This document shows, one piece after another, positions 7,665-41,445 of a DNA stretch of 64,000 bases (position 1 is its first letter; each line of letters starts with the position of its first letter). The notes below the pieces were generated by a model that was given only the letters and a program-made list of their open reading frames with translations, did no database searches and was not told where the DNA came from. The position numbers and the translations under genes are program-made. The DNA is taken from positions 19,344,001 to 19,408,000 of the forward strand of contig CM119374.1 in the NCBI GenBank assembly GCA_051294905.1, in the 5' to 3' direction. This DNA comes from Botryllus schlosseri. Its lineage: Eukaryota.

Positions 7665-8009
7665 CTCAATTGTATACAGATATATTTGTTTTGTTTTCGC
7701 AGCAATAGCGCAAATATAGAGTCTGATTCGATTCAAGACAGGTTCGACAGTTGTGTATGGTCAAATCACTCGAACGAGATAGTGGCGTTAGCATAGAGTA
7801 GTGGCTATATAAGTACCATAATATGCACGCACAATATGTCGTAGGCTGTACGTGGTATTGTAAGCTCCATGACAGATACAGGGCTCTTGAACCTATGAAT
7901 ACCATATTAAGTTGAAAACTTATCATTGATTATAGACCGGAACCCCGGCACCCGTAAGTAGTAGTTATGATCGCTCGTGATTCGTAATGGTGGCTTATGG
8001 GCCCGCTCG

Positions 8010-8408
8010 TGACCTGCCTCGAAACTCGTGTTGGTGATTCAAGTATTCCTTGGATGAAAATCCTTGAGCTCTTTTTATCAAGAATGCTATAGCATGATCT
8101 CCACAGACATCCGAAGTTTTATTCTGTAACTGTTTCCCAGTCACGGAAAATTCATCCGGCTCCAGGAATTCGATTTTCTGAGGTTTTAGTGGTCCGAAAC
8201 CTAGTGAATCATGAAAATGAGTATCCTCATCACTGTTATACACACCCAGTGAGACCCGGGAAAGCTCGACTCGTCGTAATTAATGGTAATAGCGAATTTT
8301 ACGCTTTGATTTCTTTTGTAACTGCTGGTCTACTGGATAAGTCCCTAGATGTAGACTTCGTGTATCAGGATGGTTATAGAGGATATCATTGATTTCAGAC
8401 GTATTCAT
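8010..8408 (-). pseudogene. Adenain-like (adenovirus-type C5) cysteine protease of a Polinton/adintovirus; frameshifted and C-terminally truncated
   Basis: Minus-strand translation across at least 2 frameshifts: MNTSEINDILYNHPDTRSLHLGTYPVD / INYDESSFPGSHWVC / HFHDSLGFGP...GKQLQNKTSDVCGDHAIAFLIKRAQG. It retains the HW, DS.G and QLQ...CG catalytic motifs. The ATG (8408) overlaps the capsid stop codon. Confidence 0.88.
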
Positions 8409-8463
8409 ATTTCGACGACTTGTCTTTTTTGATTCAACTGTACAAGATGTTGAAACTCCTTCA
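8405..8463 (-). pseudogene. Polinton/adintovirus major capsid protein, C-terminal tip
   Basis: Reads KEFQHLVQLNQKRQVVEI*. It joins in frame to ...TLITLLCLKE at 10771 once the 8464-10770 element and one TSD copy are removed. Confidence 0.8.
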
Positions 8464-10770
8464 CAAGGGCGTAGCCAGAAAAAATATTTGGGGGGGGCGC
8501 AAAATTCGATGACGTAAATGAGCCCCGCCCACTTGAAGATAAGGAAAAATGGGTTAAAAACGATGGTCTTGGGCAGTTATTGGATGATTAACACAACATT
8601 TGAGGCGATCTTTATGCATATCTTCCACTCGTATAAAGTCATGTGTGATTGTGGAAAACTCTGACGTCAACACTTTCGCGCGAAGCGCGAAAATTATTTT
8701 GGTAAAGAATGAAAATTGTTCATTATATTGTTACTTGCATATTGCAAATACGTTTTCATTATCAGATTTACCGGCAAGGCTGATAGAAGTGGTGTCATCG
8801 AATATTCAGGGCTAGTACACTTGAACTATGTTCATACCACACGGCAAGACTATTTTGAGCAGTGGTTCCCAACCGGGGGTCCGCAAAGCATTTTCAAGGG
8901 ATCCACGAAAACTCAAAATTTGCAAAATGGTTTATAAACTAATAATAATAAAATATTTTTGGTTTGTTTTAAATTAGAGAGATGATGAAGCACTTTCGCT
9001 TCATAACTGCTAAAAGCTCAGGACTTACATAAACAGAGAATGGCCGTCTGAGATGAAATATCCCACCGTGCAAAGTCATTTTAATTGCCGATAGCCTACT
9101 TATACTAACATATTGCTGTTTAGGGATGTTTTGCTGGGGTTTTGAAAAAAATTCTATGCAGAGATCCATTTTCTTCTATAACATACACGACCGCTATTCC
9201 AGAATAACTTCACGATGAGCTGCTAGATAGAAATGACTAGGCTGGAGGATATATTGATCCATATGTATGTTTCCATAATAGCCAAATGTGCCGTCGAAAG
9301 TGTTACGCGTTATTATTACATTCGCCACCACCTATCTTTGTGGAAATGGATTTTCGGCACTCGTTCATATCAAATCGACGACGTGGATTTTCAAGACATG
9401 GCCCTGTCTTTCAAGAAATGCAGCTACAGAATTCGCTTTAAAATAATAAACAGTCGATGTTATTTTCAAGAAAGGTCATTTGCTGTTGTTTATCACTAGC
9501 CTACAGTTAATAATTGCACAAGACAGATGAAGGTTGCATGATAATTGAGGCAAATTTGAAATAAGCACTGGGGGTCCGCGGGGGTACGTGAAGGTGCAAA
9601 GAGGGTTCACGACGACAAAAAGGTTGAGAACCACTGATTTGGAGTTGCTATAGGGTGGGCGCCGGACGGGAAAGTTTTCATTTATTGCTGTTACTTCATG
9701 ACTTGCGGAGAAAGCTGTCACCACCCAAGAGATCGCTCACACACAAGATCGTAGGCAGAATTACATATTTTGTTATTGCGGAGGGGGGGGGTATGAGTTT
9801 AAGGAAGCTCCCCCGTGGAAACACGTCGCAGAACCGTACATCCTGCCATGGGCAATTTTCATCACTACCCTTTATTCATGCGATTCTTGGACGCACACAC
9901 ACACATACCCTATGGAAGCTTCCAGTTGCCAAATATCTTGTATTGGGCGATCGTTTCACGAAGTGATGGAAATCAGTGTGAATTTCGAACCTAGTCGCGC
10001 GGAGCGTAAATGTTTTTGAATAAATGAAAGTATTTGATCAATAATATTGGTGCGTGTATATGAGCAAGTGGATTCCAGTCTTATTAATTACTTCGTTGAA
10101 GCACGGTTATTTATTGACCTCTGGTAAAGATTGATGCTAGTTTAGGGATTGGAATCGCTGATATACCATGCCGTGCGATTTCAAATTAGCAATTTTTAAC
10201 GGGATGTGGCGATATTTTCCTGTGCCAGTTGCATTCATGTCGGAGAAGTCTGATTGCAGGGACTGGATCATTAGGCGCCAGCCATTTAAGCACCCGAAAA
10301 TCTATATCGAATACATGCGTCGGTTTTATGGCCGTCAATCAATTTGGGAGCGCACTTTGCGGAGTCGCATGTTACCTACTTTATATGTCTTCGTGTGTCC
10401 CGTAACGGAAATGGTCGGAGCTAACAGTCCCCAATACCCATACTGAACTGACAATTCTAGACTCAATCAACCCAACGACGTTGGGTTACTATCGTGTATC
10501 TACTGGTACTGTTGTATTCTCATAATTAAGAATGCAGCTAAATTCAATTGTGGGTATTTGCGGAAGTTTTTTTTTCGGGACACCGATAATAAAATCAAGA
10601 CAGTTATGACCATTGACCATGGACACGAAATCGCGCGAAGCGCGAAGAATTTTTTTAGTTTGCATTCATCTGCCCTAAAATAGTGTTATATTGATTGATT
10701 TTACGAAAAATTTTCCAAAAATTTGGGGGGGGGCGATCGCTCCTTTCGCCCCTCGCTGGCTACGCCAGTG
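8464..10770 (+). mobile_element. Non-autonomous hAT-type element inserted in the capsid gene
   Basis: TIR CAAGGGCGTAGCCAG / CTGGCTACGCCAGTG with perfect 8-bp TSD CTCCTTCA (8456-8463 and 10771-10778). Confidence 0.88.
8860..9636 (+). mobile_element. hAT MITE nested in 8464-10770
   Basis: TIR CAGTGGTTCCCAACC / GGTTGAGAACCACTG. TSD ATTTTGAG / ATTTGGAG (1 mismatch). Confidence 0.85.
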
Positions 10771-11321
10771 CTCCTTCAAACATAACAAGGTTATTAAGGT
10801 TGGTAAAGGCTTCGATGTAGTCAAAACCAGATGCACAGTTCCTGTTTTATGAAGTTGATAACATCCCAAACTATCATCGGGCGTCAAATCGAACACAAAA
10901 AGAGTGTATCCATTAACATAATCTTTGCGGGAAATATTTAATGGTGCGACGGATTCCCAGCGACCCGTCTGAGAGAATAGTGACATATAACCTTCGAGTC
11001 TGCCATGTTTATCAAAATCGAAATGAAATTCGCGTCCACTAATTTGACATCCATCCACGCTTAAAGAAAGATTTTGAACATCAAAGTGTTCAAAGTTGAA
11101 TAGATTTTTGTTCGGAACACCGTTAAATGTCGTGGTCTCGACTAAACCAATTACGATCTTCTTTGGCATGGTACCGCTATAACTAACTCTCTGTCAATTT
11201 TCGATAAACCCGCGGCGAATGTATGAGTCGACTATTGCAAGCGTATCCAGGGATACTTGGCAGTATTCTTCTGTAATACAGACTTGTGTGCGAAGCTTAC
11301 ACTTTCAGCGATCTTCATCTG
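10771..11321 (-). pseudogene. Polinton/adintovirus major capsid protein, C-terminal jelly-roll segment
   Basis: QMKIAESVSFAHKSVLQKNTAKYPWIRLQ*... then (frameshift) MPKKIVIGLVETTTFNGVPNKNLFNFEHFDVQNLSLSVDG...YMSLFSQTG...ISRKDYVNGYTLFVFDLTPD. These are characteristic Polinton MCP motifs (PK.IVIG, NPFNF, GYTLF.FDLTPD). Confidence 0.92.
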
Positions 11322-11590
11322 CGAGCGAGATAGTGTAATGGTTATGCGTCCACCTTCTCGAGCGGTAGGCCGGGGGGTCGTGGGTTCGATCCCCGGCCGG
11401 GTCATACCAAAGACTCGAAAATTGGTATCCGCGGCTATCCTGCTAGGCGCTCAGCAATCACGGATAGCATGGAGGAGAAAATACGGGGGCGCAGACTAGA
11501 TGACCTCATGGGGCCGTATCGCAACTCCGTCGTCAAAGCATCTCGACGGTGCAGGCGAAAAATAATACCATCTCTCTCTCTCTCTCTCTG
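11322..11590 (+). mobile_element. tRNA-derived SINE with (CT)n tail, inserted in the capsid gene
   Basis: A-box-like TAGTGTAATGG, B-box GGTTCGATCC, unique body and (TC)n tail. A second copy lies at 18191-18452. Short TCTG duplication at the flanks. Confidence 0.88.
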
Positions 11591-11715
11591 TTTGACATAC
11601 ACTTCCATTTCGAGTAAAACAATTTGTACATCCTCCGCGTCACCAAGCAGACAGAAATGATCTTCGTTACGTATAAATTTTAATTTCATGTCGACATTAT
11701 CCAACATACATCTAG
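11590..11715 (-). pseudogene. Major capsid protein, middle segment
   Basis: CMLDNVDMKLKFIRNEDHFCLLGDAEDVQIVLLEMEVYVKQ; joins QMKI after SINE removal. Confidence 0.88.
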
Positions 11716-12087
11716 CAGTGGTTCCCAACGTGGGCGAAATCGCCCCCCAGGGGGCGATTTGGCGGTCTAGGGGGGCGAAAATGACGAAGGGGGCGACAAG
11801 GGGGTGAAAATGGACAAAGGGGGCGACGGGGGGGGGGGGCGAAAATAGCGAAGGGAGCGATAGGGGGGCGATGACGCGTAAAAACGGCTGACCTTTTTTT
11901 TTAGTCAACCCACGGAATTTTAGTTACAAAAGTGTGTCAAATTAGACAACGAGCCGAAAATTTGACCTTTTTTTTAGTCAACCCGCCGGTGATTACAGTT
12001 TGTATGCCCAATTTTCGGTACACAAAATTTGGGGGGGGGGGGCGATGATCGGTATTGACCTTGAAAAGGGGGCGATGTGAACCACTG
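11716..12087 (+). mobile_element. G-rich hAT-type MITE inserted in the capsid gene
   Basis: TIR CAGTGGTTC / GAACCACTG, with ATCTAG duplicated on both sides (6 of the expected 8 bp). Confidence 0.8.
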
Positions 12088-12228
12088 ATCTAGACTGTTC
12101 AAAAAGACCCATTCGAATTTTCCCGATCAACTCCAGCGGGGTGCTGTTTTTTTGTGAGGTCTTTTCGTTTAACACACCCAGTATTCGCTGCACCAAGAAA
12201 ATCCATAGAGCCAGCGACATTTATAGAA
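12088..12228 (-). pseudogene. Major capsid protein, segment upstream of the MITE
   Basis: VAGSMDFLGAANTGCVKRKDLTK / NSTPLELIGKIRMGLFEQSR (frameshift in an A-run); joins CMLD after MITE removal. Confidence 0.82.
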
Positions 12229-12621
12229 TTAGGTGCGTGGTATAGAGCGAATTAACAGTCTTTGTATAACACTGATGATCCGTGTGAGTAGACTTGGATT
12301 GAAGTAAACTTTACAGGAATTCTGTAAGAAAGGGTGTCGTTCACAAGGTGTTATGATATACGTAAATTTTCTTCTTACCCAGTCACTTATCAAAGAACTG
12401 TAGTGAGTATTCAAGATGTCTGTTGTTAAATCTCTGTACACCGCAATGGAATGAATGTCACTTTTCATCGCCGCAACGCTTATGATACTAAAAACTCCAT
12501 TCTAATCGATGTCGTATGATCGAATCGAGTTAACCAATGCAGTGAAATCACACTTTCGAACACGGTTCACGTTTTGACCATGTACATAGAAATCTAGTAC
12601 TCTGTGGATGAATTTTTCCAT
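12229..12621 (-). pseudogene. Unassigned about 130-codon ORF with one internal stop, inside the viral relic
   Basis: ATG at 12621 (MEKFIHRVLDFYVHG...) is in frame with the 12229-12468 ORF, with a single TAG between. No family recognised. Confidence 0.35.
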
Positions 12622-14192
12622 TTCGCTTAAACTGGGAGTTGTTAAGTCATGATAGTACAGAAGATAATTCTCAATAATCGCGCTAGTTAGTTACCGTAAC
12701 GAATAACTGTAAAAATAACTGCGAAGTGAACCTCAATAAGGTGTGAAGCGCCGCGCGGTATCGAGAGGGAAAGGGTTATCACATAATAGAAATAAAAAGC
12801 GAGTCGCCTAAGCGTGCGAAAATGAACCCTAAAATAGATATCGCCGCGTGTAGTACTTTATTGATCCAAACATAATCCGCAGGTTGCGACAGTTAGATTG
12901 AGTTATAGCGAACGACGTATTTGGTGAGCTGAGTGTATTCCAGAGCAAGTCGACGGTTAACTACTTAATAGGCAAGTTATCTGGTATGACTACTTTGATT
13001 TATGAATATAATTTGTTATTCATTTATCCACCAGACACAACAACTGTGGAATTAAGACAAAGAATTGTGTCGGTGAGTTATTACTGTTCAGAACGATGGG
13101 AGCATGATGTAACGATTTTTGTTGTTGAACAGACAAAGCAAACTCAAGGATTAATAACAACACGCAAGCCTACTGGTGAGCAACGTTCCCTCTAAGCTGC
13201 GCACGTGCGCAAATGCGCAGTGCTGAAACGTTCTCTGCGCATAGAATCTTGGCTGCGCACAAAAAATCCGAAGTGATGACTTTTTTTATAGTCGTTGCGA
13301 ACTGTTGTCCAAGAGACCGCGCAGGCGCGCATACTTGTGAAAAATTAGAGGTAACATTGCCCGGGGCAAATACTGCTATCGCTCAAGTCTGAAACCGAGG
13401 TACAAGTGCTGCCCGCAAAGGTAGATATAAACGAGAATTTGCAATGATGTGCGCCTCACGAAAGAGATTTTTCTTCTAGTATGGTCCCGTACGCGTGAGC
13501 GATGCCGATACTGATATCATTTCAATAGCGCAATCTTTTCTGGGAATGGCGAAATAACATGGTTTGACAAAGTTATAAATAACAATGGGCTAGCTTGACG
13601 TTAATCTGCGAGAAACTAACGAATAGTCTTTTCCGCGTGGCATGAGCATTGCGTAAGATTTACTGTGCAATTACATGCCGTGAATTTTCGAAGTCATCAC
13701 TTCCATCAGGCGAATCTGATCACGTATGGTGAGATATGATAATATACATAATATGCAAGTACAAGCACCGATATTGTTTAAAAAATCGATCCCTTTGCAA
13801 ACGTTGGTCGGGAAATTCTACAACTTTGCACTGAAGGGCGTTGAATTACATCAGCTTCTTAGCAGCACAAATTTTGGTTTTATTCGATTCGTTCAACAGG
13901 AATCATCCGTCGATAAGGTCATACGCTGATATTGTTCTTGCTTCAGTCAGGCTTGAATATTCGTATCATTAAATCTGATAGTAAAATCATTATGTCTTGA
14001 TAGTAATGACCGCATATTGCCGGCAGTGTTTTAACGCGGTAGGCCTACATCGGCCGCTTTATTGATTTGAAGTGCGTTCTCGTGCGTGTATGTCGTCTAC
14101 TAGTAATCTATATAACAGCTTACGTCACCATTTACACGGGTTTATTGTGACGTCACAGATGATCGCACAAAATTCCGAATCGCCGTCTACAG

Positions 14193-15429
14193 CAGTGCTC
14201 TTCAACCGGGGTTGTCGTACACCCTATAGGGTGTACCAGAATTTGCAAAGGGTGTACCACTCGGATGGGGTGTACAGGGGTGTACCAGATCCGAATCACA
14301 ATGAGCCGATGGTTAGTTATCACAAAGACAGGTTTATGGGTCAGTACAGGTTGACGCACAGGTTAATGAGCAATATGGTACGATGTTATCACAAGTGTAA
14401 TACTGTACACCGCTTGATTGTGATGTCATAACCAAATATTTATTCTCTTCATTTAGTCGTCGGCAATAGACCAATGGTTCCATTTGGTGTTGGATAGTAT
14501 GCAGTTACTGTTCAGCTAGTCATTTGTCTTTTAGTGATTTTTGAGGAAACCGCCGCGATAGCTCAGACTTTTTGAATCTGTACTTCCTACCCGACGTTAA
14601 TAAATACCGCAATGCACATAAATGAAGTGACGTAGCCAGCCAGGATCGAAACAGCTTCCATGTTGAAATCGAAACCCTTTTGTTTTAAAATGCCGATTGT
14701 ATGTCCAATATTTCGCCATACATTTGCAATTTAGTATTTTGTTATTAGTGATGTAAATCAGCGACAATAGACTGTGTATAGCGGCATACGATCTGAGGTT
14801 ACTGGCATCTCTTGCAGCCCATGTGCTATTATCGACTGTGTGTGGGGCAGGCCTGATACGCAGTTGGCTGGTGCGCCTGCTATCATCGCTGATCTGAATT
14901 ACCGCTTCTGCAGCAGTAGCTTTACCTACTCTCTCCCCAATACTGTTACATTTAGGTTGATTATCGTTCGTAATGTCATGCTGTTCTTGCTCAGATTCCA
15001 ATTTGTGTGGCGGGGGGCCTAACTGGCTGCGAATAGACTCTGTGACCAAATACTATTTTATTCAAATCCAAATTTTTTGACGGCAATAACTCCGCTTCTA
15101 CTGGTCGGAATTGAACCAAATTTGATGAACATCGTTTTTATAGACAGCCTAATACTTTCATGGGGTGAACAGAAAAATTTCAAATTTTTCGTTATTTATT
15201 TTTATATAATAAATAGAAACTTTCTTCTCCCGTAGAAAGGCGACTACTGGTTGGAATTGAACCAAATTTGGTGTGTAGGCTTAAGTTAGGTAACCTAACA
15301 ATTTTATCAAGTAGCCAGTACGATTTGAGAAATAAAGTCATTTTTGAAGACCCCTGATGAACAGGGGTGTACGAGTTTTGAGTAAACGTTAAAAGGGTGT
15401 ACCACGTCGAAAAAGGTTGAAGAGCACTG
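14193..15429 (+). mobile_element. hAT MITE nested in 13181-16813
   Basis: TIR CAGTGCTCTTCAACC / GGTTGAAGAGCACTG with perfect TSD GTCTACAG. Subterminal GGGTGTAC repeats. Confidence 0.92.
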
Positions 15430-15560
15430 GTCTACAGTACTTGCGATTACAGGCGACCATTTGTGTCGCCACAAATGTTTTGGCTATAGCTGTTTGCCTG
15501 TGTGGCCAACGTTGAGTGAATATTCGCTAATTGTGCACTGTTTACCGACCGCCTTTAATA

Positions 15561-15825
15561 ATGGCAAAACGAATGGGTAGTTTCACATCTCCTCACCTAG
15601 CCAAATTAGCAAAAAAGTGCGATTCGTTGTCGGGGCATGTGAAAACGGACGAAAAAACTGTAAAATTAGGTGAGAATTTTTCTTTTTCGAGCGATAAAGG
15701 TGTGCTCTGCAAAATATGTAGAGAAGCAAAATATGGAAAAGAACAGCATTCATTTCTTCAGAAAGCCACCGCACTAGAACTGTAGTCAAAACACCCTCAA
15801 AATATGCACCACAGAACACGTGCGA
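15561..15825 (+). pseudogene. Relic of a hAT transposase N-terminal zinc-finger (TTF-type-like)
   Basis: ...FSSDKGVLCKICREAK...KATALEL*SKHPQNMHHR: C-x2-C...H-x4-H spacing, broken by a stop. It lies inside a hAT-ended element. Confidence 0.45.
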
Positions 15826-16821
15826 CATCCATGATGTCGAGGTTTATAGCAATTGCGGGTGAATGCTTCTTAACCCTTAGCGACACCACAGAGTCGCACG
15901 TATGCTATGGTGCATATCCCGAAAATATTTCAGCAGAAGCCTAAACGCGACGGCGTTCTGATAAAAAAAAATGCCCTCAATGGCTTAACTTCAAGTCGAG
16001 ACCACATCGTGTTTTGAGCGTAGTTCCCCATCTTCACTTATAATGTGATTATCTGGTGTAATGCAATAAAACTAAATGTAAATGCTGTATTTTGATTCTA
16101 TCAATGAATCATGTGACTCGAATGGATACACGCACGTCTGGTGTTACGCACAGGACCGTAACTGCCGCACCCCAAACTCCCCAATGGGGCACCCCGAGCT
16201 CGAAGGGGAACCAAAATTATTTCGTGAATAAACAGAAATCATGGAGTAATTTTTAGGAAATTTATGCAACTTTTTCAAAGAAGAAATAACAATTTGAAAT
16301 CGTGTAGGCCTACGTCTTAGTTTAGACTTTAGTACGTTTGGGCGATTTCAATAACTTTTGACACAGCAGATAGGAGGACACGAAAGAGCATCATGTACCG
16401 AAGTCATTACCAACGGGTACGCCCGAAGATATTTGATTATTATTTAAGGGTCCTACCTTTTCCAGCACACCTTACTCGATCCGCTCTACCGGTAAATCTG
16501 GTTACGTGAGCAGAGAGAGGATTAAAATTGATAGCAATATATGTGCAATTCCCGATCATATTGACCGATTCAATCATTAATTATATATAATATTCTCGCT
16601 TCGCGCGTCCAGGCTATACACCCACCAAGCGGACGCCCAATATAGATGAAAAGTAGCGGCAAAAAGCGTAAGGGCCGAGGGGGGTCTGGGGGCAGATCCC
16701 CCAGAAATTAGGCTTATCACCATATGAGGTACCAGGTTGCGCACTGTTGTCTATGGGCCTGCGCAGTGAGTTGGCGTGTTTGCGCAGACTCGTCTAAATT
16801 AGAGGGAACATTGCTGGTGAG

Positions 16822-17193
16822 TTATCTGGTATAACACTATGTGATCATCATTCTGTCCATCGTCATTATAACAAGACAGGGGATGGCTATGGATATTTTA
16901 GTGGTGGAGTTCAAGCCGGTTCCGGTATTGGGAGTTTGTTTAAATCACTTGGTCGTTTAGTGACACCTATTGCGAAATACGCCGGTGGCCAATTGTTACG
17001 GACTGGAGGTGAAATAGCGAGAGATCTATTACAGGGTAACTATATCAAGTCTAGTGTTATCAAGAGAAGTGAACAAGCTGGTGGTCGAGTGATTGATAAA
17101 ATTTTAACCCCCAAGGCTATAAAAAGGAAAAAACCAAAGTCAAAGAACACTTCATCCAAACGTCGTCGTAAACAACAGGATATATTCGACTAA
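16822..17193 (+). pseudogene. Small basic core/membrane-active type protein of the kind found immediately upstream of the MCP in Polintons/adintoviruses; native start codon not evident
   Basis: LCDHHSVHRHYNKTGDGYGYFSGGVQAGSGIGSLFKSLGRLVTPIAKYAGGQLLRTGGEIARDLLQG...KRRRKQQDIFD*. Q.G.G.GS.F motif, amphipathic helix and K/R-rich tail; ends 6 nt before the MCP ATG. Confidence 0.75.
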
Positions 17194-17199
17194 AGAATT

Positions 17200-17445
17200 A
17201 TGTTGATGCACGCGGGTTCCAGAGAATGTCATAACACCGGATTAAACATATTTAGTATACCCCACACGCAAACCAGTATTGACGAATCACAATATGTCGT
17301 CGTCAAACCCCATAGTTTAGGTAATGTCATGGAAGTACAATTACCAAGGACGGATCGATATATGGATCAACAAAACACATTCATGAGATTACGTTTGAAG
17401 CTCACTAAACACGATGGAACTGATGCCATTCAAGCATATGCGACT
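17200..17445 (+). pseudogene. Polinton/adintovirus major capsid protein N-terminus (opposite strand to the C-terminal pieces)
   Basis: MLMHAGSRECHNTGLNIFSIPHTQTSIDESQYVVVKP...RYMD...FMRLRLKLTKHDGT matches the typical MCP start (S.EC...L..F..P.TQTSI). Cut off next to a hAT end at about 17463. Confidence 0.88.
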
Positions 17446-18142: not shown

Positions 18143-18190
18143 GTGAGTTACGACTCTGATTTTTTACATTATTTCGTCCTGCCACATTAC

Positions 18191-18452
18191 CGAGCGAGAT
18201 AGTTATAAATAGTTATGCATCCGGCTTCTCAAGCGGTAGGTCGTGGGTTCGATCCCTGGCCGGGTCATACCAAAGACTCGAAAATTGGTATCCGCAGCTA
18301 TCCTGCTAGGCGCTCAGCAATCACGGATAGCATGGAGGAGGAAAAAAACCGGGGGCGCAGACTTAGATGACACCATGGGGCCGTATCGCAACTCCGTCGT
18401 CAAAGCATCTCGATGGTGCAGGCGAAAAACAATACCATATCTCTCTCTCTCT
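18191..18452 (+). mobile_element. Second copy of the tRNA-derived SINE, in a ZYG11 intron
   Basis: High identity to 11322-11590, including the B-box and (CT)n tail. Confidence 0.88.
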
Positions 18453-19429: not shown

Positions 19430-20880
19430 ATTGTACCGTGGAAGGACTTTTCAATGGCGAGCTAAACGAAAGTGGAATATTGTGGAGATTGCATGATGTA
19501 ACAAAATGCTCAAGCGTATCTGGTTGATTGCATGTGTCACACAGTCTCGTTTCATGAAGCAAAGTCTGTGCAGATGAGCGTTTAGTCTACAATGCCCGTT
19601 TGCATTCGAATGCGAATAGACGACTCTCTACGTCTACGAGAAAGCGACGGCATAGTCGTGTGATCATCGATACTTGAAAAAATTCGTCGATATTACGACT
19701 TGCGAGTCAATGTCCATTTGATTCCAGTGATTAACCCATTGGGTTTTGCAGAATTTATGAATTAGGGAATTTGCTTCATTCGTAGATATATCCTGCTTTT
19801 CCATGTTGGCTGATAGATCATTCGCTGTGTCTCGCACAGGTTGATCAGCTGTCTCGTTGAAACCAACATTCTTGTGTCCAGGGATCCATACCATCGAAAC
19901 TGCTTTCTTCTTGAAGACCGCGTCGTTGTTCCGTTCTTGCGTATCTAACGACGATGCTGTTCGTTGTGTTACACATGTTGATTGCTGTCAGGGCGCTTTC
20001 GCTGTCTGAAAAAAAATCGTGATATTAGAATTTGGCAAGCATTTTACTGTAATCCAGTCCAACACCGCTCTTATTGCAATAAGCTCTGCTGAAAATATAG
20101 ACAATGGCTGGTGAGTTTCCTGCAGGGCAAGTACACCAGGTTTTCCATCAAGTCATCCTATGAAATATTTTAATACCGGGATATTTCCATAAATGCTCCT
20201 ACAATTCCATTGAAGTATTTTTAATTTACCTCTGAAGGTGAAGTTTGTGTGAGGTCCATTATTGTATATACACGTCAGTAAGTAGTTTGTGGCGAAACAT
20301 GTCCGCAGTGTTGATCGATGCTCAAGGTTTCTTCTCGATTTAGTTGCAATCCGGGAAGTACTCTTCCAAGTTATTTCTTTGCGGTCTCCGATATGACCTT
20401 TTCTGTGTCAATTTCCTGTAGCCGAATTGTGAAGGCCGTGTGTATTACCGTTCGCAGAGGGCCTGGGTTTAAAAATCGAAACCCGGTCCTTTTGAAACGC
20501 CAATTCTATCTCCAATTACTGGTATTCCATGAAACAATAGGGTTTTTCCGGGGGTTAAGACACACAGTCAACTCATACATATAATTTGTGATGATACGCC
20601 TGTCTTGGCAATTATTGGTTGCAGGTAAATACACCTGATCAGTAGTCGAATTATAACTGTTGGGGCTGCACGTCGTGTGCAGTGGCGCATACAGGGGAGG
20701 TCGTGATTCGAAATTGAAGCCCAGTCTGTCTGAAATGCTAATTCTATCTTCAATATTTATAAGCTCATTTGTAATCAAGCAATTGGTAACACGCAGTTTC
20801 GGCCTAACAATACAGCGTCACTTTCCAAGGTTAAACCTCACATTTCTGAGCTGGTAACTTAAATGGAACAGCAGATTTGC
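19430..20880 (-). mobile_element. Internally deleted RNase H-containing non-LTR retrotransposon (I-group-like)
   Basis: Minus strand: KLKILQWNCRSIYGN...GVLALQETH (APE endonuclease start) runs in frame into LSIFSAELIAI...SDSESAL...WIPGHKNVGFNETAD (RNase H), then GHCRLNAHLHRL...CDTCNQPDTLEHFVTSC (CCHC finger). Stops and frameshifts are present. The ORF1 assignment of 20270-20880 is tentative. Confidence 0.85.
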
Positions 20881-26094: not shown

Positions 26095-26884
26095 GTGAGT
26101 TTGCGATTGCAATCGTGGATGCTGCATTATGCCGACTTGAACTAGAACTAGTCACTTCTCAAAATACGCTAATAGAACCAGAACTATACTCGTTTTTCAA
26201 AACTCGCAACTAGCACTCGTACTAGAACTACTAACTTTTTACAACTTGCAACTAGTATTAGAACTAGGACTTACTCCCTTTTCAAAATGCGCAACTGAGT
26301 AAAACTACTCACTTTTCAAAACTCGCAATTCGAACTAGAACTACTCACTTTTCAAAACTAACAACCAGAACTAGAATAAGAACTACTCGATGTTTAAAAC
26401 TAAGGCTAGAACTAGAAATACTCACTTTTCAAAACTCGCCACTAAAACTACTCATATTTCAAAAGTCACAACTAGAACTAGAACTATTCACTTTTCAAAA
26501 CTAGCAACTAAAACTAGAACTACTGGATTTCAAACTACGCAATTAGGACTAGAGCAAATCACTTTTCAAGATTAACAACTAACACTAGAAATAGAACTGC
26601 TCACTTCTCAAAACTGTAACTATAGTCACTTTTCAAAAGTCACAACTAGGATAGAATTACTCGCATTTTAAAACTAACAACCAGAACTAGAAGTAAAACG
26701 ACTAACTTTCAAAACTCGCAACAAATACTAGGACTACTTACTTATCACTAGAAGTAGAACTATTGAAAATAACATTAGAAGAGCTTCTTGGAGGTACAGA
26801 ACTTCAATATACAATTGAATAGTGTATTCATATTGAAATGAACCCGAATATTTTCGGGTTTCTGATGACGTCATCAGCCGCGGC

Positions 26885-27499
26885 ATGGAGAGGAAATTAA
26901 CGCAATTCAACGCAGAAAAACGAACAGAGCCCACCGCACGAACAATAAAAGATGTTTATATCCATCTACCTTGGATTGGCCCCATTTCCACCCGCTTTGA
27001 AAAACAATTGATTTCTGCTGTCGGTAAATGTTACGATACAGTCAAAACCAATGTGATTTTTACAACAACACAACTGCTCCCTTCAACACGCAAAGACGTG
27101 CTTCCTGCACTTCAACAAAGTAATGTAGTGTACGAATATAGGTGCCACTGTGATTGTGGCTACGTGGGAAGAACGTCAAGACGTCTGCAGGACCGCATAA
27201 ACCAACATGTCCCCAGATTTATCAGAACACGTGCGTCACGCGATGTGAAAAGCTCACCCTTAACTCATCCACTTAAGATTGATGCTGATCGATCAAAGGC
27301 AATTAATTCTGCCATCGGCAAACATCTGTTGGATAATCCGATTTGTGCGAATAATTATCGAGACGACCGATTTCGAATCGTAGGTCGAGGCCGTTCACAA
27401 TTCCATTTGTGTGCCTTGGAATCAACTTTTATCAAAATACACCAACCAAAACTCTGTCAACAAAAGGAGTTCGTGTATCACCTAAAAATAGTACATTGA
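26885..27499 (+). CDS. Penelope-like element C-terminal region: RT thumb/linker plus GIY-YIG endonuclease (truncated; the ATG is probably not native)
   Basis: YIHLPWIG...KDVLP...SNVVYEYRCHCDCGYVGRTSRRLQDRINQH...SAIGKHL...LCALESTFIK..QPKLC.QK; uninterrupted for 204 codons. Confidence 0.88.
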   Translation: MERKLTQFNAEKRTEPTARTIKDVYIHLPWIGPISTRFEKQLISAVGKCYDTVKTNVIFTTTQLLPSTRKDVLPALQQSNVVYEYRCHCDCGYVGRTSRRLQDRINQHVPRFIRTRASRDVKSSPLTHPLKIDADRSKAINSAIGKHLLDNPICANNYRDDRFRIVGRGRSQFHLCALESTFIKIHQPKLCQQKEFVYHLKIVH

Positions 27500-27635: not shown

Positions 27636-27732
27636 CATTTCAATATGAATACACTATTTAAAATAACATTAGTTAGTTGACCGTCAAGTAACTAGATCGG
27701 TAGTTTTGTACAATTCTGTCATTCTTTTGCAG

Positions 27733-27891
27733 ACGTTTGACTTTTTCAAGGCCGCGCGTCTGGTCATGCAATGTCTGTGTTCCAGTGACGACGAGGCCAT
27801 GCACAGAATGGCGGTTGCCATCATTTCAATACTGGCGGCCAAGATTTCGACCGAGGAAACCGCCATTTTGGGCTCCAACACAAATATGAAG
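27733..27891 (+). CDS. ZYG11: ZYG11-family exon (TFDFFKAARLVMQCLC...MHRMAVAIISILAAKISTEET...)
   Basis: Near identity to the conserved MQRMAVAIISILAAKLSTEQT motif. Confidence 0.95.
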
Positions 27892-28020
27892 GTAGTATAT
27901 GCGTACACCACGGACGGTCAAAGTATTCAGCATTGCTACTCAAGTACAAGTTGGCAAAATCCACTAGAGTTCTTTAAAAAAGTAGAATTTCTCCGTACCG
28001 ACCGACGATTTCGCCTTCAG

Positions 28021-28182
28021 GCGCTGCTGCAAATCGTGGATCAGAAGCTGAACGTTGGAGCCTCGGATTTGACGCTCAAATTTGCTCTGAGCGCGCTTTG
28101 GAATTTGACAGACGAGAGTTCTTCCACTTGCAGGAACTTCATTCAGAACAACGGGCTGGCGCTGGTCTTGCGCGTTCTGTCT
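28021..28182 (+). CDS. ZYG11: ZYG11-family exon (ALLQIVDQK...TLKFALSALWNLTDESSSTCRNFIQNNGL...)
   Basis: Conserved TLKFTLSALWNLTDES.TC..FI motif; TTCAG / GTGAGT. Confidence 0.95.
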
Positions 28183-28214
28183 GTGAGTCTGTCCCCATGT
28201 CTGCTCTCAACTTG

Positions 28215-29126
28215 ACAATTCTAGTTGTCTAGTTCGAGCGATTAGAGAAAAATACCGGTAATATAATTTGTGAAATGTTTCCATGTTCTCATTTTGATTC
28301 AAATCTAATTTCTGCTTTTCCTGGAAAAGCAACAGGAGACCTGTATCGTGCGAAACGATCCAACCATGTTGTATAGACATTTGCCATCCTCGTGCTTATG
28401 AGTATAATCTCTGATTAGATATGAACTCAACTTTATTTTTGTAGTATTTCTTTCTGATTTGAAATTGATTTCAGTTTCAAAGTTTTTGCAAAATCTTAAT
28501 TCTAATATTATTTGGAAAAAATTGTAGCTATATTCCTAAATCTAATCCAATTGGTTAAGGCCGACAATTTTCCAGTTTTCCAAGTATGCTATCAAGGCTC
28601 CCCCACGCATTTCCATAAGGTTTGTTCAAACAAACTTTTTAGTTAATTTCACTGAGTATTCGATGGAATTGTTAGGTTGCCTAAAAAAACGATGGACATC
28701 AAATTTAACACCATTCCAACCCATAGAAATGAAGGTATCAGACTAGATTTTTGGTTAATAAAAAATGCGACTAAAAAAATGGACTTGGGCTACTAGCTAA
28801 TTTTCAGCTTTTCTAAATTGAATAGGCATTATACCTACACAGTTTTTTCAAATTAGGTTAGAATTAGAATTATAGCTACACAGGTGTTTCCAAATTAGAG
28901 CAGAATTAGAATTAAAGCTACAAAATTTTTTTCGAAATTGGATTCGTAATATAGGTTCAATACAGGTTCTTTAAAAAATATATTCAAATTAGAATGATAG
29001 CTAAAAAAGTATTTTTCGAATTAGAGTAGAACTACAATTACTGAATTAGATTAGAATAAGACCACGGACATTTCACTCTAGTGGTTCTAATTAGGCAGCT
29101 AGAATTATCTAGTTGTCCAAGTCTGC
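28215..29126. repeat. AATTCTAATCTAATTT-rich interspersed repeat
   Basis: Shares ends (CTAGTTGTCCAAGT) and units with 32508-33025 and the 30.0-30.9 kb array. Confidence 0.6.
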
Positions 29127-29573
29127 CCCAGTGCGTAATCTAGGCAATCTAACAATTTCATGGGTCTCCAGTTGAATAATTTTTTTTTAATAAATTTAAA
29201 AAAAAATGCACTAAAAACTTCGCTTGTATGAGTTGGAATTGAGCCAAACCTAAGTTACAGCATTCTGGGCAACCTGGCCATTTCATAGGGTTCCAGTGTA
29301 ATTATTTTAGTAAATTATTTTTACTTTTTTATAAAGGCCTATTAGAAGTGGGCCAAAATTTATGTGCAGCTTTTTTATTGGTAACCTAATGACTTGATTT
29401 GGTTCCTTCGAAAAAAAATCATTTTTTCCATTAAATCCAAAATTTTTCACTGTGATAACTTCACTTGTATGGGCTGTAATTGAACCAAATTTGATGTACA
29501 ATATTTTAAGGCACGCAGCGAAATTTTATAAGAAAAGTTTGTTTTAATTACCCTAACGTCCGTACCGTTACAG

Positions 29574-29621
29574 ATACACTACGACAATCCATGCGTCCAA
29601 ACAAGAATCCTGGGGCTGCTG
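29574..29621 (+). CDS. ZYG11: ZYG11-family exon (IHYDNPCVQTRILGLL)
   Basis: TACAG / GTGGGT; matches IQQKVLGLL. Confidence 0.88.
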
Positions 29622-29736
29622 GTGGGTGATTTTCTTTCCATTTTATGAAAAGTTTCCCAAGTTTTTCCAAATTTTTATTCGCAAATTTGTTTTCATTTGT
29701 TTCACAACTTTATCGAATTTCTTGTATTTTGCGCAG

Positions 29737-29844
29737 AACAATCTGGCAGAGGTTGCCGAGCTCCGACCTTACCTCCTTCTCCTCCACAACAAGACGTCGC
29801 TCATTCAGAACGTCCGGACTTTGCTCGCTTCCGAACATATTGAG
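29737..29844 (+). CDS. ZYG11: ZYG11-family exon (NNLAEVAELRPYL...LLASEHIE)
   Basis: Matches NNIAEVQEL...LLHSVEVE. Confidence 0.9.
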
Positions 29845-30089
29845 GTTTCTTTGTTTGGTTTTTCAACTTTTTTCCCGATCTTCTGACTTCACAGCCAGAT
29901 AATTTCTGGCTTTCCTGAAAATTCTGCAGGTTAACTGTATCGTACAAAAACGAACCAAGCATGCTGTACAGACATTTGAAGAATGGACTTAGACTTGGCA
30001 TGACCTGAACTTTATTTTGTTGTATTCCTAATTCACAATTTGATTCAATTTTGTTATTGCGAACTTGGTACTATTAATTAAAATCCAAG

Positions 30090-30890
30090 TTGGAAAAATT
30101 GTGGCTATAATTTAATTGTGAATAATTTGGAAAAACTATGTAGCTATCATTCTAAACATAAAATAATTTGGAAAAACTGCGTAGCTATCATTCGAATTCT
30201 GATCAAATTTGAAAAAAAGACTGCGTGTAGCAATCACGCATATAATTTAATTTTAAAAAAAACAGTGTAGCTATCATTTTACGGTAATTGTTATCTATTT
30301 TGAAAAAAAGCTGTGTAGCTATCATTCGAATTCTAATCAAATTTGGAAAAAGACTGTGTAGTCATCACTGAATTCTACTCTAATTTTGAAAGAAACAGTG
30401 TAGCCATCATTGAATTCTAATCGAATTTGGAAAAAAGGTGAGGTCATTGTTTGATTCAAATTTAATTTGAAAAAAGAAGCTGTGTAGCTATCATTATAAT
30501 TGCAATCTATTTTTAAAAAAGAAGCTGTGTAGCTATCATTCGAATTCTAATCAAATTTGGAAAAAAAAACTGTGCAGTCATCATTGAATTCTACTATAAT
30601 TTTAAAAAAAACTGTAGCTACCATTCGCATTCTAATCAAATTTAAAAAAAAACTGTGTAGCCATCATTGAATTCTAATCTAATTTGAAGAATAAAAACAG
30701 TGTGACTATCATTTTAATTGTAATATATTTTGAAGAACAAAACTGTGTATAGCTATCATTCGAATTCCAATAAAATTTGGAAAAACTGCAGCTATCATTC
30801 TAAACCTATTCTAATTTGGTTATAAAAACAGTGTAGCTTGAATTCTAATTCTAATCTATTTGGAAAATACTGGAATTTTTCCAATGGTCC
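30090..30890. repeat. Intronic minisatellite of about 55-60 bp units (CTGTGTAGCTATCATTCGAATTCTAATCAAATTTGGAAAAA)
   Basis: More than 10 degenerate tandem units are visible. Confidence 0.85.
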
Positions 30891-30915
30891 ATCTCTGATT
30901 GCAATATCGTTTCAG

Positions 30916-31026
30916 GTGTGTTACTTTGCGGCAGGAGTCATTTCTCACTTGGCCATGCTGGATGACGCGGAATGGGACTCGCGACTCAATTGCAGCGGAA
31001 TGAGAAAAGCATGTCTCGAGGACGTG
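30916..31026 (+). CDS. ZYG11: ZYG11-family exon (VCYFAAGVISHL...EWD...CLEDV)
   Basis: Matches VSYFAAGIIAHL; TTCAG / GTGAGA. Confidence 0.92.
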
Positions 31027-31632
31027 GTGAGAAAAGTAGTCAAAGTAGTTGCTACCCTAGTAGAAGTACAAGTAACGCTGAAACGTTACAAGCAGAAATT
31101 GCGATTTCCAATACACCGGATGCCAAAAACTAGTTCAGGTGGAAAAACGACTTGTTACGTCTGAAAAGTACCCAGGGCTAGGGAATTACATTTGTGACCT
31201 AAAAATTGAAAATCTGGACATTTTTGACAAATCTTTGACTCGTGAAGGACTCGCACAAATTACGAGCAAGAGGTTGCTTAGATCTAAAAAATGAAACTAG
31301 TTACTTTAGTATTTGGTAGATCATAGTTTTCTAGCTCCGTCTCAAGTCGCTTTCTACTTTTAAAAATCAAAATTGTAAAAACTAAGTGGTTTTGTCTAAA
31401 ATAATGTCAATTAAAAGTTAAAGTGATCAAAAACATAACCACTCGAGTAAGGAGTTGACAAAACATGTTGAGTACACTGTATAGGTAGAAAGAGCGATTT
31501 TGAAGGGAAAAGTAAATACTTCCGCCTTGTTTTGCTAGTAGAAATGAAAAGAGTTTAAAAAGTAGGGAAAACCTACTTGCGCTTTCGGAAAGATAGAAAT
31601 ATTTTGTTACTGACCCTTTTTTCATGTTCTAG

Positions 31633-33417: not shown

Positions 33418-34082
33418 ACTCGGTGAGACCGAACTCAATTTGATACGTGTGCAAACTGAAATTTCTGAATATAGCTCACTTTTTAACACAACCTTCCAAT
33501 CTAGTTTTTGCCGGTCAACTAACGAATGCTTTTATGAGTAGGCTACTTCAAGTTCTAGTTGGGGAATTTGTAAAGTGAGCAGTTCTAGTTCAAATTGGGA
33601 CTTTTGAAGTCAGTAGTTCTAGATCTAGTTCTGGAAAGTCAGTAGGTCTAGTTCCAGTTGCTGCTTTTGAAAAGTGGGTAGCTGTAGTTCTAGTTCAGAC
33701 TTTTGAAAAATTATTAGTTCTAGTTCAAGTTGTAAGTTTTGAGAAGTGAGTAGTTCTAGTAACTAGTTCTAGTTGTAGAATTTGAAAAAGGAGTAGTTGG
33801 GATTATCAAAATGTAGTGTTTTGTACAATTCTAACTCATCGGTTCGAAACACATGCGGCCAACGTAGTCATCGTTGGTAGAAGTAGCATGGTGAATTTAT
33901 AGGCCTATACAAGTAAAAGACTAATGAATTCATTTCATGACTTATGGAAACTAAATTTTGGCTTGCTTTGTCATTCATTATTTCAAAACACTGGAGGCGG
34001 TCAAAGTAGTAGTCGCTGTTAGAAGTAGAAGTAATATCGTGAATTTCTGTACAAAAGTGCGCATGTAGCCTACAAGTAACGA

Positions 34083-40612: not shown

Positions 40613-41445
40613 CCATGTTGGGATCAATTCACTACCTTCGAGTCACGAGCCATTGCACATTTTGACTCGAGTCGAGTCAAGTCGCTCGTTTTTGGAGGTG
40701 ACTCGAGTCAAGTCAAGTCAAATTGAATTTTCGAAGTATGAGTGGTGATGCAAAGTCATTACATTTTGCTAACTGGTGATGGACAGATTAATTGGCCATT
40801 TATCTTGAATCAAATAGCGAATATAAAGTTAAATATACATGCAAAAAGGTGTTGCATCGCGCGCACACACGTAGAACTGCTAATAAAATACGCGAGTAAC
40901 TGTCCACATGCAACAGTCTGGTTTTAATGCCAATATAGAGGATCGAATATGAAGCCTCGAGAAGTTGAACAAATTTATTTGCTACAACAGGCACTATCCA
41001 TCTACACATCCGTGAGAATATTAAGGCATAAACTAAATTCGTTCGATTTAAATCATATAAGAGTGTTGGTAAAGGTGAGCGCTGTGCAATGTAGGCACTG
41101 AACCGTCTAAGAAACAAAGATATGTTGCTATTAGATTAATCTACAACTACTACTACAACGTAAGCAGTGAACGTTTAGTTATTGGTCGATTTATTTGTGA
41201 TGTAATAATGGAGCGTCAGTGATTCGTACAATCAGTGAATGACTGATTGCTCTCACAAGTGACACCGACGTAACGCGGACAACCCGAACATAGATAAGAT
41301 AGGATGATTTAATTGACACTGTTTACTTGATGACTTGAAATTGACTTGTGAATTTTGCTCCGAGTCATGAGTCAATCCTCATTTCTGAAGCGCCGAGTCA
41401 AGTCAAGTCATTTTTACAAAGTGGACTTGAGTCATCCCAACACTG
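40613..41445 (+). mobile_element. hAT MITE, GACTCGAGTC family
   Basis: Ends (CC/CA)GTGTTGGGAT / ATCCCAACACTG with perfect TSD GATGAATG. Confidence 0.88.

Follow-up and report, generated by a model that had tools for sequence, protein, structure and literature searches.

The window analysed here comprises 64,000 nucleotides of the Botryllus schlosseri genome (assembly GCA_051294905.1, contig CM119374.1, positions 19,344,001 to 19,408,000). It contains a broken capsid gene in four minus-strand pieces that align, ordered and consecutive, with the capsid genes of sibling elements in the same genome. Compared with 21 natural 423-codon sibling genes, the median nucleotide identities were 91% for piece 1 (12088-12228, sibling residues 138-184, two small indels), 96% for piece 2 (11587-11715, residues 183-225), 93% for piece 3 (10771-11321, residues 225-407, one frameshifting indel) and 96% for piece 4 (8405-8463, residues 405-423 with the natural stop). 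Thus the four pieces with three inserts between them, as reported in a preliminary description of this DNA, are real. Yet the pieces span residues 138-423 of 423 only, and the gene is not complete in 8010..12228 as had been assumed. Its 5' end (residues 1-75) was located at 17200-17424 on the plus strand, i.e. about 5 kb from the four pieces and opposite to them, with a median DNA identity of 95.6% and no gaps, while the 62 residues 76-137 were unmatched in the window and the 10 kb upstream. Nor do three insertions alone break the gene: there are also three small indels across two pieces, 12088-12228 and 10771-11321, both of which are frameshifted, and one premature stop in the sibling frame. 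The capsid assignment holds from 8405 onward, but 8037-8408 (minus strand) is a broken and 3'-truncated protease gene, probably of the adenain type, which covers residues 3-145 of 167 with about 91% DNA identity and 3 gaps relative to sibling genes and has an in-frame stop.

The insert between pieces 3 and 4 (8464-10770) is a DNA element of 2,307 bp; its 8-bp duplication CTCCTTCA is perfect, and its inverted ends are short (14/20). It belongs to a multi-copy composite family (44 matches from the best 40 of 618 candidates) and is 95-96% identical to three other copies; an 8-bp duplication, a new one each, was seen in 3/3 other copies examined. A MITE-like unit is present inside it at 8860-9636, yet not as the separate, nested insertion previously described: position and flanks of the unit are identical in 3/3 other copies, so it arrived within the composite. 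A further composite insert of 3.6 kb (13181-16813), absent from the preliminary description, has short inverted ends and the 8-bp duplication CTGGTGAG, and near 14190-15430 a second element, about 1.24 kb long, is nested in it; in three sequencing runs a contig joint omitted 1,245 bp of it. A transposase family was matched by 0/8 ORFs of the two inserts in one scan, five of them from the 2.3-kb element, and by 0/2 in another. Size, duplication and hAT-like ends of the 2.3-kb element agree with its earlier classification, whereas a transposase match does not back it, and both inserts are classed as non-autonomous hAT-like elements from their ends only.

Between pieces 2 and 3 lies a SINE-like insert of 265 bp (11322-11586, plus strand) with a (CT)n tail and a duplication of 4 bp only, which merges with the tail. 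A second copy is present in the window at about 18189-18452, and identity to copies in L027, L056 and L060 was 90-92%. Insert, simple-repeat tail and dispersed copies are as described before, but neither Rfam nor ARAGORN matched a tRNA-like gene in the insert. It has A-box- and B-box-like motifs, which we take to mark a tRNA-derived head, and a tRNA origin is likely. The MITE of 372 bp between pieces 1 and 2 (11716-12087) was confirmed; it has a 6-bp duplication and related copies in L023, L032 and L055.

At 7957-8037 we found the outer 81 bp of a terminal inverted repeat, beginning AGTAGTAGT; the remainder of the repeat is missing. Identity of this tip to 39 further scored ends of elements genome-wide, none of them close to the window, was 83-89%; to the end of the sampled sibling it was 79%, compared with up to 89% for other ends. 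A second end of the window copy was not found; a match to AGTAGTAGTT at 41145 was rejected, as it came without matching duplication or repeat. Since only one end was found, a 6-bp duplication made on integration cannot be shown for the window copy.

At 12215-12228 the capsid gene meets the left arm of the element in opposite orientation, with a short imperfect microhomology at this inversion junction. The inverted left-arm segment (12215-13180, plus strand), 88-92% identical to the left arms of siblings, includes the region upstream of the polymerase and, at 12352-12687 on the minus strand, a small accessory ORF in broken form (tblastn 82%). The stretch 12902-13195 had been a candidate for the penton gene and was rejected because it is left-arm DNA. 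Sibling identity was 86-92% in the left arm versus 91-97% in the capsid module, a difference that may point to two parents. The final left-arm bases border a deletion junction (16814-16840, plus strand), where about 9.8 kb with polymerase, ATPase, integrase and penton candidate are missing relative to the sibling. Next follows, at 16840-17190 on the plus strand, the remnant of a glycine-rich, basic core-protein gene, at the amino-acid level 92.5% identical to the ORF that lies before the capsid gene in the sibling; the initial amphipathic stretch of this protein is presumably of a cupiennin-like type. Outside capsid and protease, 2/14 sibling ORFs tested matched the window. Polymerase and integrase genes gave no tblastn match in the window and 10 kb upstream, and none of 150 scored polymerase matches was close to the window. 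N-terminal exons of the adjacent ZER1-like host gene were not found near the window. Compared with an autonomous Polinton the window copy lacks polymerase, integrase, two repeats, a target duplication and uninterrupted capsid and protease frames. It is a defective derivative of a Polinton, not palindromic in structure, in which remnants of capsid and protease are retained.

The rearranged form is not an amplified non-autonomous subfamily: inversion and deletion junction were each spanned by 0/39 other scored matches in searches that scored the best 40 of 218 and 40 of 99 candidates. High-copy repeats occur throughout, and the whole rearranged region is spanned by no single contig, so that the inversion might be suspected to be an assembly error. 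On the other hand, the inversion junction is bridged without difference by a contig of 184 bp from run X9, and in each of the four runs contigs extend across the junction of flank and element end; an assembly error is practically negligible as an explanation. Runs X5-X8, with only 0.04-0.06 of words, were outside the contig comparison. Contig depth of capsid DNA was 40-150x that of the flanks, a depth which is not a copy number. Two samples hold the element end, and n=2 is too few to judge fixation.

The structure check was carried out on a natural sibling capsid. The model showed a double jelly roll with a pLDDT of 93.5 and a pTM of 0.91. Foldseek matched it to the capsids of iridovirus, PBCV-1 and the virophage Sputnik (E 1.5e-16, TM about 0.6-0.68) and to BFVD capsids; the top BFVD match was from Cotesia bracovirus, which we take to be a captured Maverick gene. 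An Atlas score of 0.98 was obtained for the sibling capsid against clusters with PF21738 on 14-30% of their members. No Pfam capsid or protease family matched window pieces, sibling capsids or database capsids, with NCBIfam only the integrase was recognised, searching the PDB sequences with a capsid profile yielded one chance match (E 0.14), and 0 of 19 pattern matches in IMG/VR viral contigs were confirmed. Going by the fold predicted for the sibling, the broken gene codes for a double-jelly-roll major capsid protein of the Polinton/Maverick (adintovirus-type) kind, in accordance with the original proposal.

Among the public full-length proteins retrieved, identity to the family reached 47-49% at most for unnamed proteins and 38-40% for those with a name, the best named relatives being 'F54H12.2-like' proteins of reptiles, fish and amphibians. 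A fragment with 91% identity is present in a public collection. In a capsid tree, which included no labelled adintovirus references, the family grouped with unnamed Logan proteins and not with the vertebrate proteins. The claim of a divergent, unsampled capsid therefore stands for the family as a whole, but not for this copy as a lone lineage, and the family's distance from named proteins, as gauged by sequence identity, is the only support for 'unsampled'.

A genome search for intact relatives decided against a lone lineage. Among 150 scored matches to one window capsid piece, 98 had an amino-acid identity of 86-91%, and 76 of these 98 lay in an open 432-codon frame; in a quick tree the window piece nested inside the host family with an SH-aLRT of 99. 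One sibling, of which both ends were examined, is about 16.5 kb long, with inverted repeats of 784 bp that are 99.6% identical and a target duplication of 6 bp. The available text of 10.1101/2023.08.22.554363 gives 13-25 kb, 100-1500-bp terminal inverted repeats and 5-8-bp target duplications for Polintons. The sibling polymerase matched pPolB PF03175 above the cut-off (E 1.3e-8), the match covering 108 of 468 positions, and polymerase frames of about 1,130-1,310 codons were found at many loci. The integrase consists of rve (PF00665, E 4.7e-16) and a chromodomain. A P-loop ORF of 203 codons had a weak Pox_A32 match below the cut-off (E 0.008). The protease ORF after the capsid gene lacks a Pfam match and displays His, Asp and Gln-Cys motifs in an order that we take for the arrangement of adenain-type cysteine proteases. 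For a 223-codon ORF, a penton candidate of low recognition, the nearest named Atlas cluster was the Sputnik minor capsid at 0.95. Two polymerase types accompany near-identical capsid modules, i.e. modules are exchanged in the family.

This exchange would be compatible with a chimera of two family members, formed by inter-copy recombination or by two truncated insertions back to back. The left arm being more diverged than the capsid module and the terminal 81 bp being nearer to other ends than to that of the sampled sibling point in the same direction. However, the capsid parts on one strand complete those on the other without overlapping them and have diverged to the same degree, host DNA is absent between the parts, and left arms and repeats vary widely among the siblings themselves. 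We regard a chimera as improbable.

In comparison with 19 siblings the window capsid showed a dN of 0.029-0.040 and a dS of 0.12-0.23, with pairwise dN/dS of 0.13-0.34. Sibling pairs (n=171) had a median dN of 0.002, and their pooled dN/dS of about 0.05 indicates that sibling capsid genes are under purifying selection. A three-taxon count assigned 17 N and 13 S changes to the window branch versus 4 N and 11 S (p 0.07, not significant alone), with an outgroup saturated at silent sites. Having gathered about 0.03 more non-synonymous changes per site than the siblings, the window copy is best read as a dead yet fairly young relic. The identity of 95-96% between the 2.3-kb insert and its other copies implies that this insertion is not ancient either.

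The preliminary description had favored an old, fixed paleovirus, here taken to stand alone for a capsid lineage not sampled before. Such a history would fit the rearrangements and the four later insertions within the copy, the presence of the element end in two samples and the distance of the family from public full-length proteins. Yet the low non-synonymous divergence, the young 2.3-kb insert, 98 close relatives in the same genome and the 91% identical public fragment speak against it, and we consider it very improbable. The pairwise dN/dS below 1 might suggest that the capsid fragment was domesticated, or that the locus functions with its inserts spliced out or in a host role. But this ratio includes the time as a selected element, and a gene with its start on the other strand, 62 residues missing, frameshifts and a stop makes such a function extremely improbable.

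Taken together, we consider the locus, with a probability of about 0.88, to be one dead, rearranged copy of a Polinton/Maverick family that recently multiplied in the host genome. The locus is an ordinary genomic fossil. Going by the literature, the family genome would be linear, 16-17 kb long with long inverted repeats and copied by a protein-primed polymerase, and its insertion by a retroviral-type integrase would leave a duplication of 6 bp. Particles are probably formed with the capsid, penton, ATPase and protease, again judging from the literature, as genes and ends alone were seen in the siblings; particle building would explain the purifying selection on the capsid gene. The dS values suggest that the window copy, when it integrated, came from a sub-branch slightly older than the rest of the family. 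It was probably scrambled by an inversion that was guided by microhomology and cut through the capsid gene, and by deletions in which the block from polymerase to penton, the other end and most of one repeat were lost; scrambling in replication before integration and chromosomal repair afterwards have roughly even odds. Four host mobile elements landed in the copy, which has decayed since then. It presumably yields no capsid protein and was probably never amplified in its rearranged form.

A farther-reaching reading is possible, with the odds clearly against it: the relic may be a frozen defective genome from template switching in its own replication, belonging to a host-specific polintovirus clade with unusually many open, selected capsid genes and exchanged polymerases. 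If so, this genome would offer a natural setting in which to study how animal polintoviruses form defective genomes and reinfect by way of particles.

Compared with known systems, the family resembles adintoviruses, perhaps those of the Beta group with a Terrapene-type virion module, as far as these are covered by the available text of PMC8502044, in its animal host, integrase, putative adenain-like protease and a polymerase matching PF03175 weakly (108 of 468 positions). Beta adintoviruses are marked by a divergent polymerase that bears an OTU domain at its N-terminus, by a Terrapene-type capsid and by a gene of the GasderminX or cupiennin-like kind; an OTU domain was not matched in the N-terminal part of the sibling polymerase. 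Like Polintons/Mavericks (polintoviruses), the family has a PY double-jelly-roll capsid followed by a protease and purifying selection on capsid genes, and the siblings add pPolB, rve integrase, a putative ATPase, long inverted repeats, the 6-bp duplication and the size of 16.5 kb. Unlike them, the window copy has lost pPolB, ATPase, integrase and penton together with one end, and an inversion runs through its capsid gene. In vertebrate genomes, according to the accessible parts of PMC8097293 and PMC4028283, most Maverick copies are degraded, having large insertions and lacking discernible repeats. Thus the locus itself is of little weight, and its value is that of a pointer and a clock. As a clock it gives an order of events, in which four host mobile elements entered a copy only about 3% decayed. 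As a pointer it leads to a large, young Polinton family with a capsid gene under strong purifying selection, whose 76 open capsid frames, a count of one gene and not of whole elements, exceed the vertebrate maximum of 38 intact elements in the same parts of PMC8097293 and PMC4028283. This selection is relevant to the question whether particles are formed by the Polintons of animals.

The longest open capsid piece (10771-11193) was used as a query against the host genome (495 Mb in 219 contigs; the window is G000:C4:19344001-19408000). Small shares of sequence words in marine metagenome runs hint that the host is a marine animal. Scoring of 150 of the 241 candidates gave, apart from the window itself, at least 98 matches with 86-91% identity over nearly the full length of the piece, and 76 of these 98 lay in a 432-codon open frame. 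Judged by sequence, the capsid family is amply represented by its own copies in the host genome. The same search also revealed at least three more capsid families of the Polinton type, many with open frames, at about 78%, 51% and 48% identity.

Comparison with 21 natural genes of 423 codons from sibling copies of the family placed the four minus-strand capsid pieces (12088-12228, 11587-11715, 10771-11321 and 8405-8463) at residues 138-184, 183-225, 225-407 and 405-423, with median DNA identities of 91, 96, 93 and 96%, respectively. Therefore about two thirds of the gene are contained in these pieces. The preliminary description had read them as one capsid gene split by three inserts. Collinearity with the siblings and the duplications flanking the inserts agree with this view. 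Yet the span is not the whole gene, because the start is absent, residues are missing and there are internal indels, i.e. two small ones in piece 1 and one in piece 3; in addition, there is one premature stop in the sibling reading frame. Residues 1-75 were located at 17200-17424 on the plus strand with the core-protein gene before them; residues 76-137 had no match in the window or the 10 kb before it. The sequence at 8037-8408 (minus strand), previously assigned to the capsid, is a broken putative protease gene by sibling comparison.

The layout of the relic (about 7957-17424) was read by comparison with sibling stretches. Host flank precedes an 81-bp terminal-repeat tip, which begins with AGTAGTAGT at 7957 and is followed on the minus strand by the protease and by capsid residues 423 back to 138. 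An inversion junction with short imperfect microhomology (12215-12228) leads into about 970 bp of the left arm of the element and then into a 3.6-kb insert. The deletion junction (16840) lacks about 9.8 kb of a sibling. Beyond it, the plus strand carries the core gene and then capsid residues 1-75, and host repeats come last. Only two of the 14 sibling ORFs tested outside capsid and protease matched the window, and a second element end was looked for and not found. The inversion and the deletion junction were each spanned by none of the 39 other scored matches (40 of 218 and 40 of 99 candidates scored). The arrangement is real, because a 184-bp contig of sequencing run X9 crosses the inversion junction without a difference and contigs from all four runs compared cross the flank-to-end junction (15 of 375 joints listed). 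The runs represent two samples, one possibly the assembled one, which cannot show fixation, so that the earlier term 'fixed' is not supported.

In another rearranged family copy (G000:C4:15803000-15808500) the protease, capsid and end segments are duplicated, and a copy of the SINE-like element of the window is present. The terminal 81 bp yielded 477 genome candidates, and many of them form inverted pairs at distances of 9-22 kb (e.g. C3:35631290-35644582, C14:4269272-4282894 and C9:648348-661627); these pairs may be palindromic satellites.

The 2,307-bp element between the capsid pieces had been described as a hAT element with a nested MITE. A perfect 8-bp duplication, inverted ends in which 14 of 20 bases agree and the inner MITE were recovered, while a search of its ORFs found no transposase. 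It belongs to a dispersed family with at least 44 matches (40 of 618 candidates scored). Three other copies, 95-96% identical along their length, carry the inner MITE at the same place, each within a new outer 8-bp duplication, so that the MITE made no independent jump at this locus. The other two inserts are a 372-bp MITE with a 6-bp duplication and a 265-bp SINE-like insert with a (CT)n tail and a 4-bp duplication. The latter has dispersed copies at 90-95% identity, one of them in the window (18189-18452, plus strand; 94-95% over aligned parts), and ARAGORN and Rfam gave no support for a tRNA origin. The fourth insert, overlooked before, is a 3,633-bp hAT-like composite (13181-16813) with an 8-bp duplication.

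Beyond the relic, exons of a ZER1/ZYG11-like host gene lie at 27673-31164 on the plus strand (PF22964, best E 2e-26); its upstream exons were looked for and not located. A plus-strand ORF of 220 codons (26837-27499) has no Pfam match; it resembles the last part of a Penelope-type reverse transcriptase that carries a GIY-YIG nuclease. An RNase H fragment (19664-19987, minus strand, E 3e-5) is probably what remains of a non-LTR retrotransposon. At 83-255, 26173-26747, 30172-30867 and 33547-33760 there are tandem arrays whose 36-45 bp units contain TAGTTC-rich motifs; several stand in opposite orientations, and the arrays resemble Helitron-like or minisatellite-bearing elements.

The proposed Polinton/adintovirus identity of the capsid was confirmed with a natural sibling protein, aligned with 71 database homologues for structure prediction. 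The predicted fold had a pLDDT of 93.5 and a pTM of 0.91, and Foldseek matched it to the major capsids of iridovirus, PBCV-1, EhV-201, Sputnik, faustovirus and mavirus (best E 1.5e-16, TM about 0.6). Viral capsids were also matched in BFVD, and in the Atlas the protein stood at 0.98 with 'F54H12.2' clusters, 14-30% of whose members carry PF21738. The Polinton PY protein has been identified as a major capsid of this kind (PMC4028283). One sampled sibling region of about 16.5 kb has inverted repeats of 784 bp at 99.6% identity, a 6-bp duplication and ORFs for pPolB, P-loop ATPase, rve-chromo integrase, penton candidate, core, capsid and putative protease. On the main tests the source family thus classifies as Polinton; the window copy does not and is a defective derivative of it.

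Two sibling stretches (L025 and L028) share near-identical capsid modules (96.7% over 6.1 kb) but have two polymerase types of about 80% DNA identity, with protein classes of 92-100% and 72-81% throughout the genome. Subfamilies within a single genome thus seem to have exchanged polymerases; such exchange has been described between Polintons (10.1101/2023.08.22.554363). The left-arm accessory region varies among siblings (L024 6053-8519 versus L029 and L033-L036), and a 292-codon ORF there is present in some and absent from others and from the window copy.

With an E-value limit of 0.001, a capsid search of 1.84 billion representatives returned 7,362 relatives, and the top full-length match was 47% identical. 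A public fragment of 192 residues was 91% identical and probably comes from the same animal or a close relative. A word-based search reached 47-49% at best among 107 matches, and among named proteins the 'F54H12.2-like' ones from Tiliqua and Amia came closest, at 38-40%. A quick tree of 73 rows placed the window piece inside a host family of ten rows (SH-aLRT 99); all 14 host-genome rows, those of the further capsid families included, clustered with two unnamed Logan proteins (support 97). Tree placement and low identity to named proteins thus set the family apart as a branch of its own, for which these searches gave no close relative with a name. Beyond this the suggested 'unsampled lineage' is not supported: the window piece itself has many host relatives, and branches of this sort are frequent among Polintons whose host has been little sampled. 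The weak match to PF03175 and the capsid relatives among vertebrate proteins tentatively favour Beta over Alpha adintovirus in the scheme of PMC8502044.

Age and selection were estimated from 357-358 aligned codons with 19 siblings, chosen as best-scoring matches and not at random. The window copy differed from them by dN 0.029-0.040 and dS 0.12-0.23; the 171 sibling pairs had a median dN of 0.002, a median dS of 0.083 and a pooled dN/dS of 0.05. We take about 0.03 of excess dN to reflect decay after the window copy died, and its larger dS to reflect an earlier split of its sub-branch. A three-taxon count of 17-20 non-synonymous changes on the window branch versus 4-12 on sibling branches points the same way, with one tested contrast not significant (p 0.07). 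Assuming a generic neutral rate of a few 1e-9 per site and year, the copy would have died a few to about 15 million years ago at most, and calling it 'old' was an overstatement. This age is in keeping with the 2.3-kb insert, which differs by 4-5% from its nearest copies. It seems unlikely to us, at about one chance in five, that template switching produced the relic as a defective genome with a link to palindromic satellites, within a polintovirus burst of unusual size and under selection.

In vertebrates, most Mavericks are reported to be decayed, carrying long insertions and lacking recognisable repeats; fossils occur alongside intact copies, of which a single genome has 38 at most, and purifying selection acts on the capsid genes (PMC8097293). 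Many polintoviruses have been reported from marine invertebrates (PMC11131425). The window locus is a degraded fossil of the kind known for these vertebrate Mavericks.
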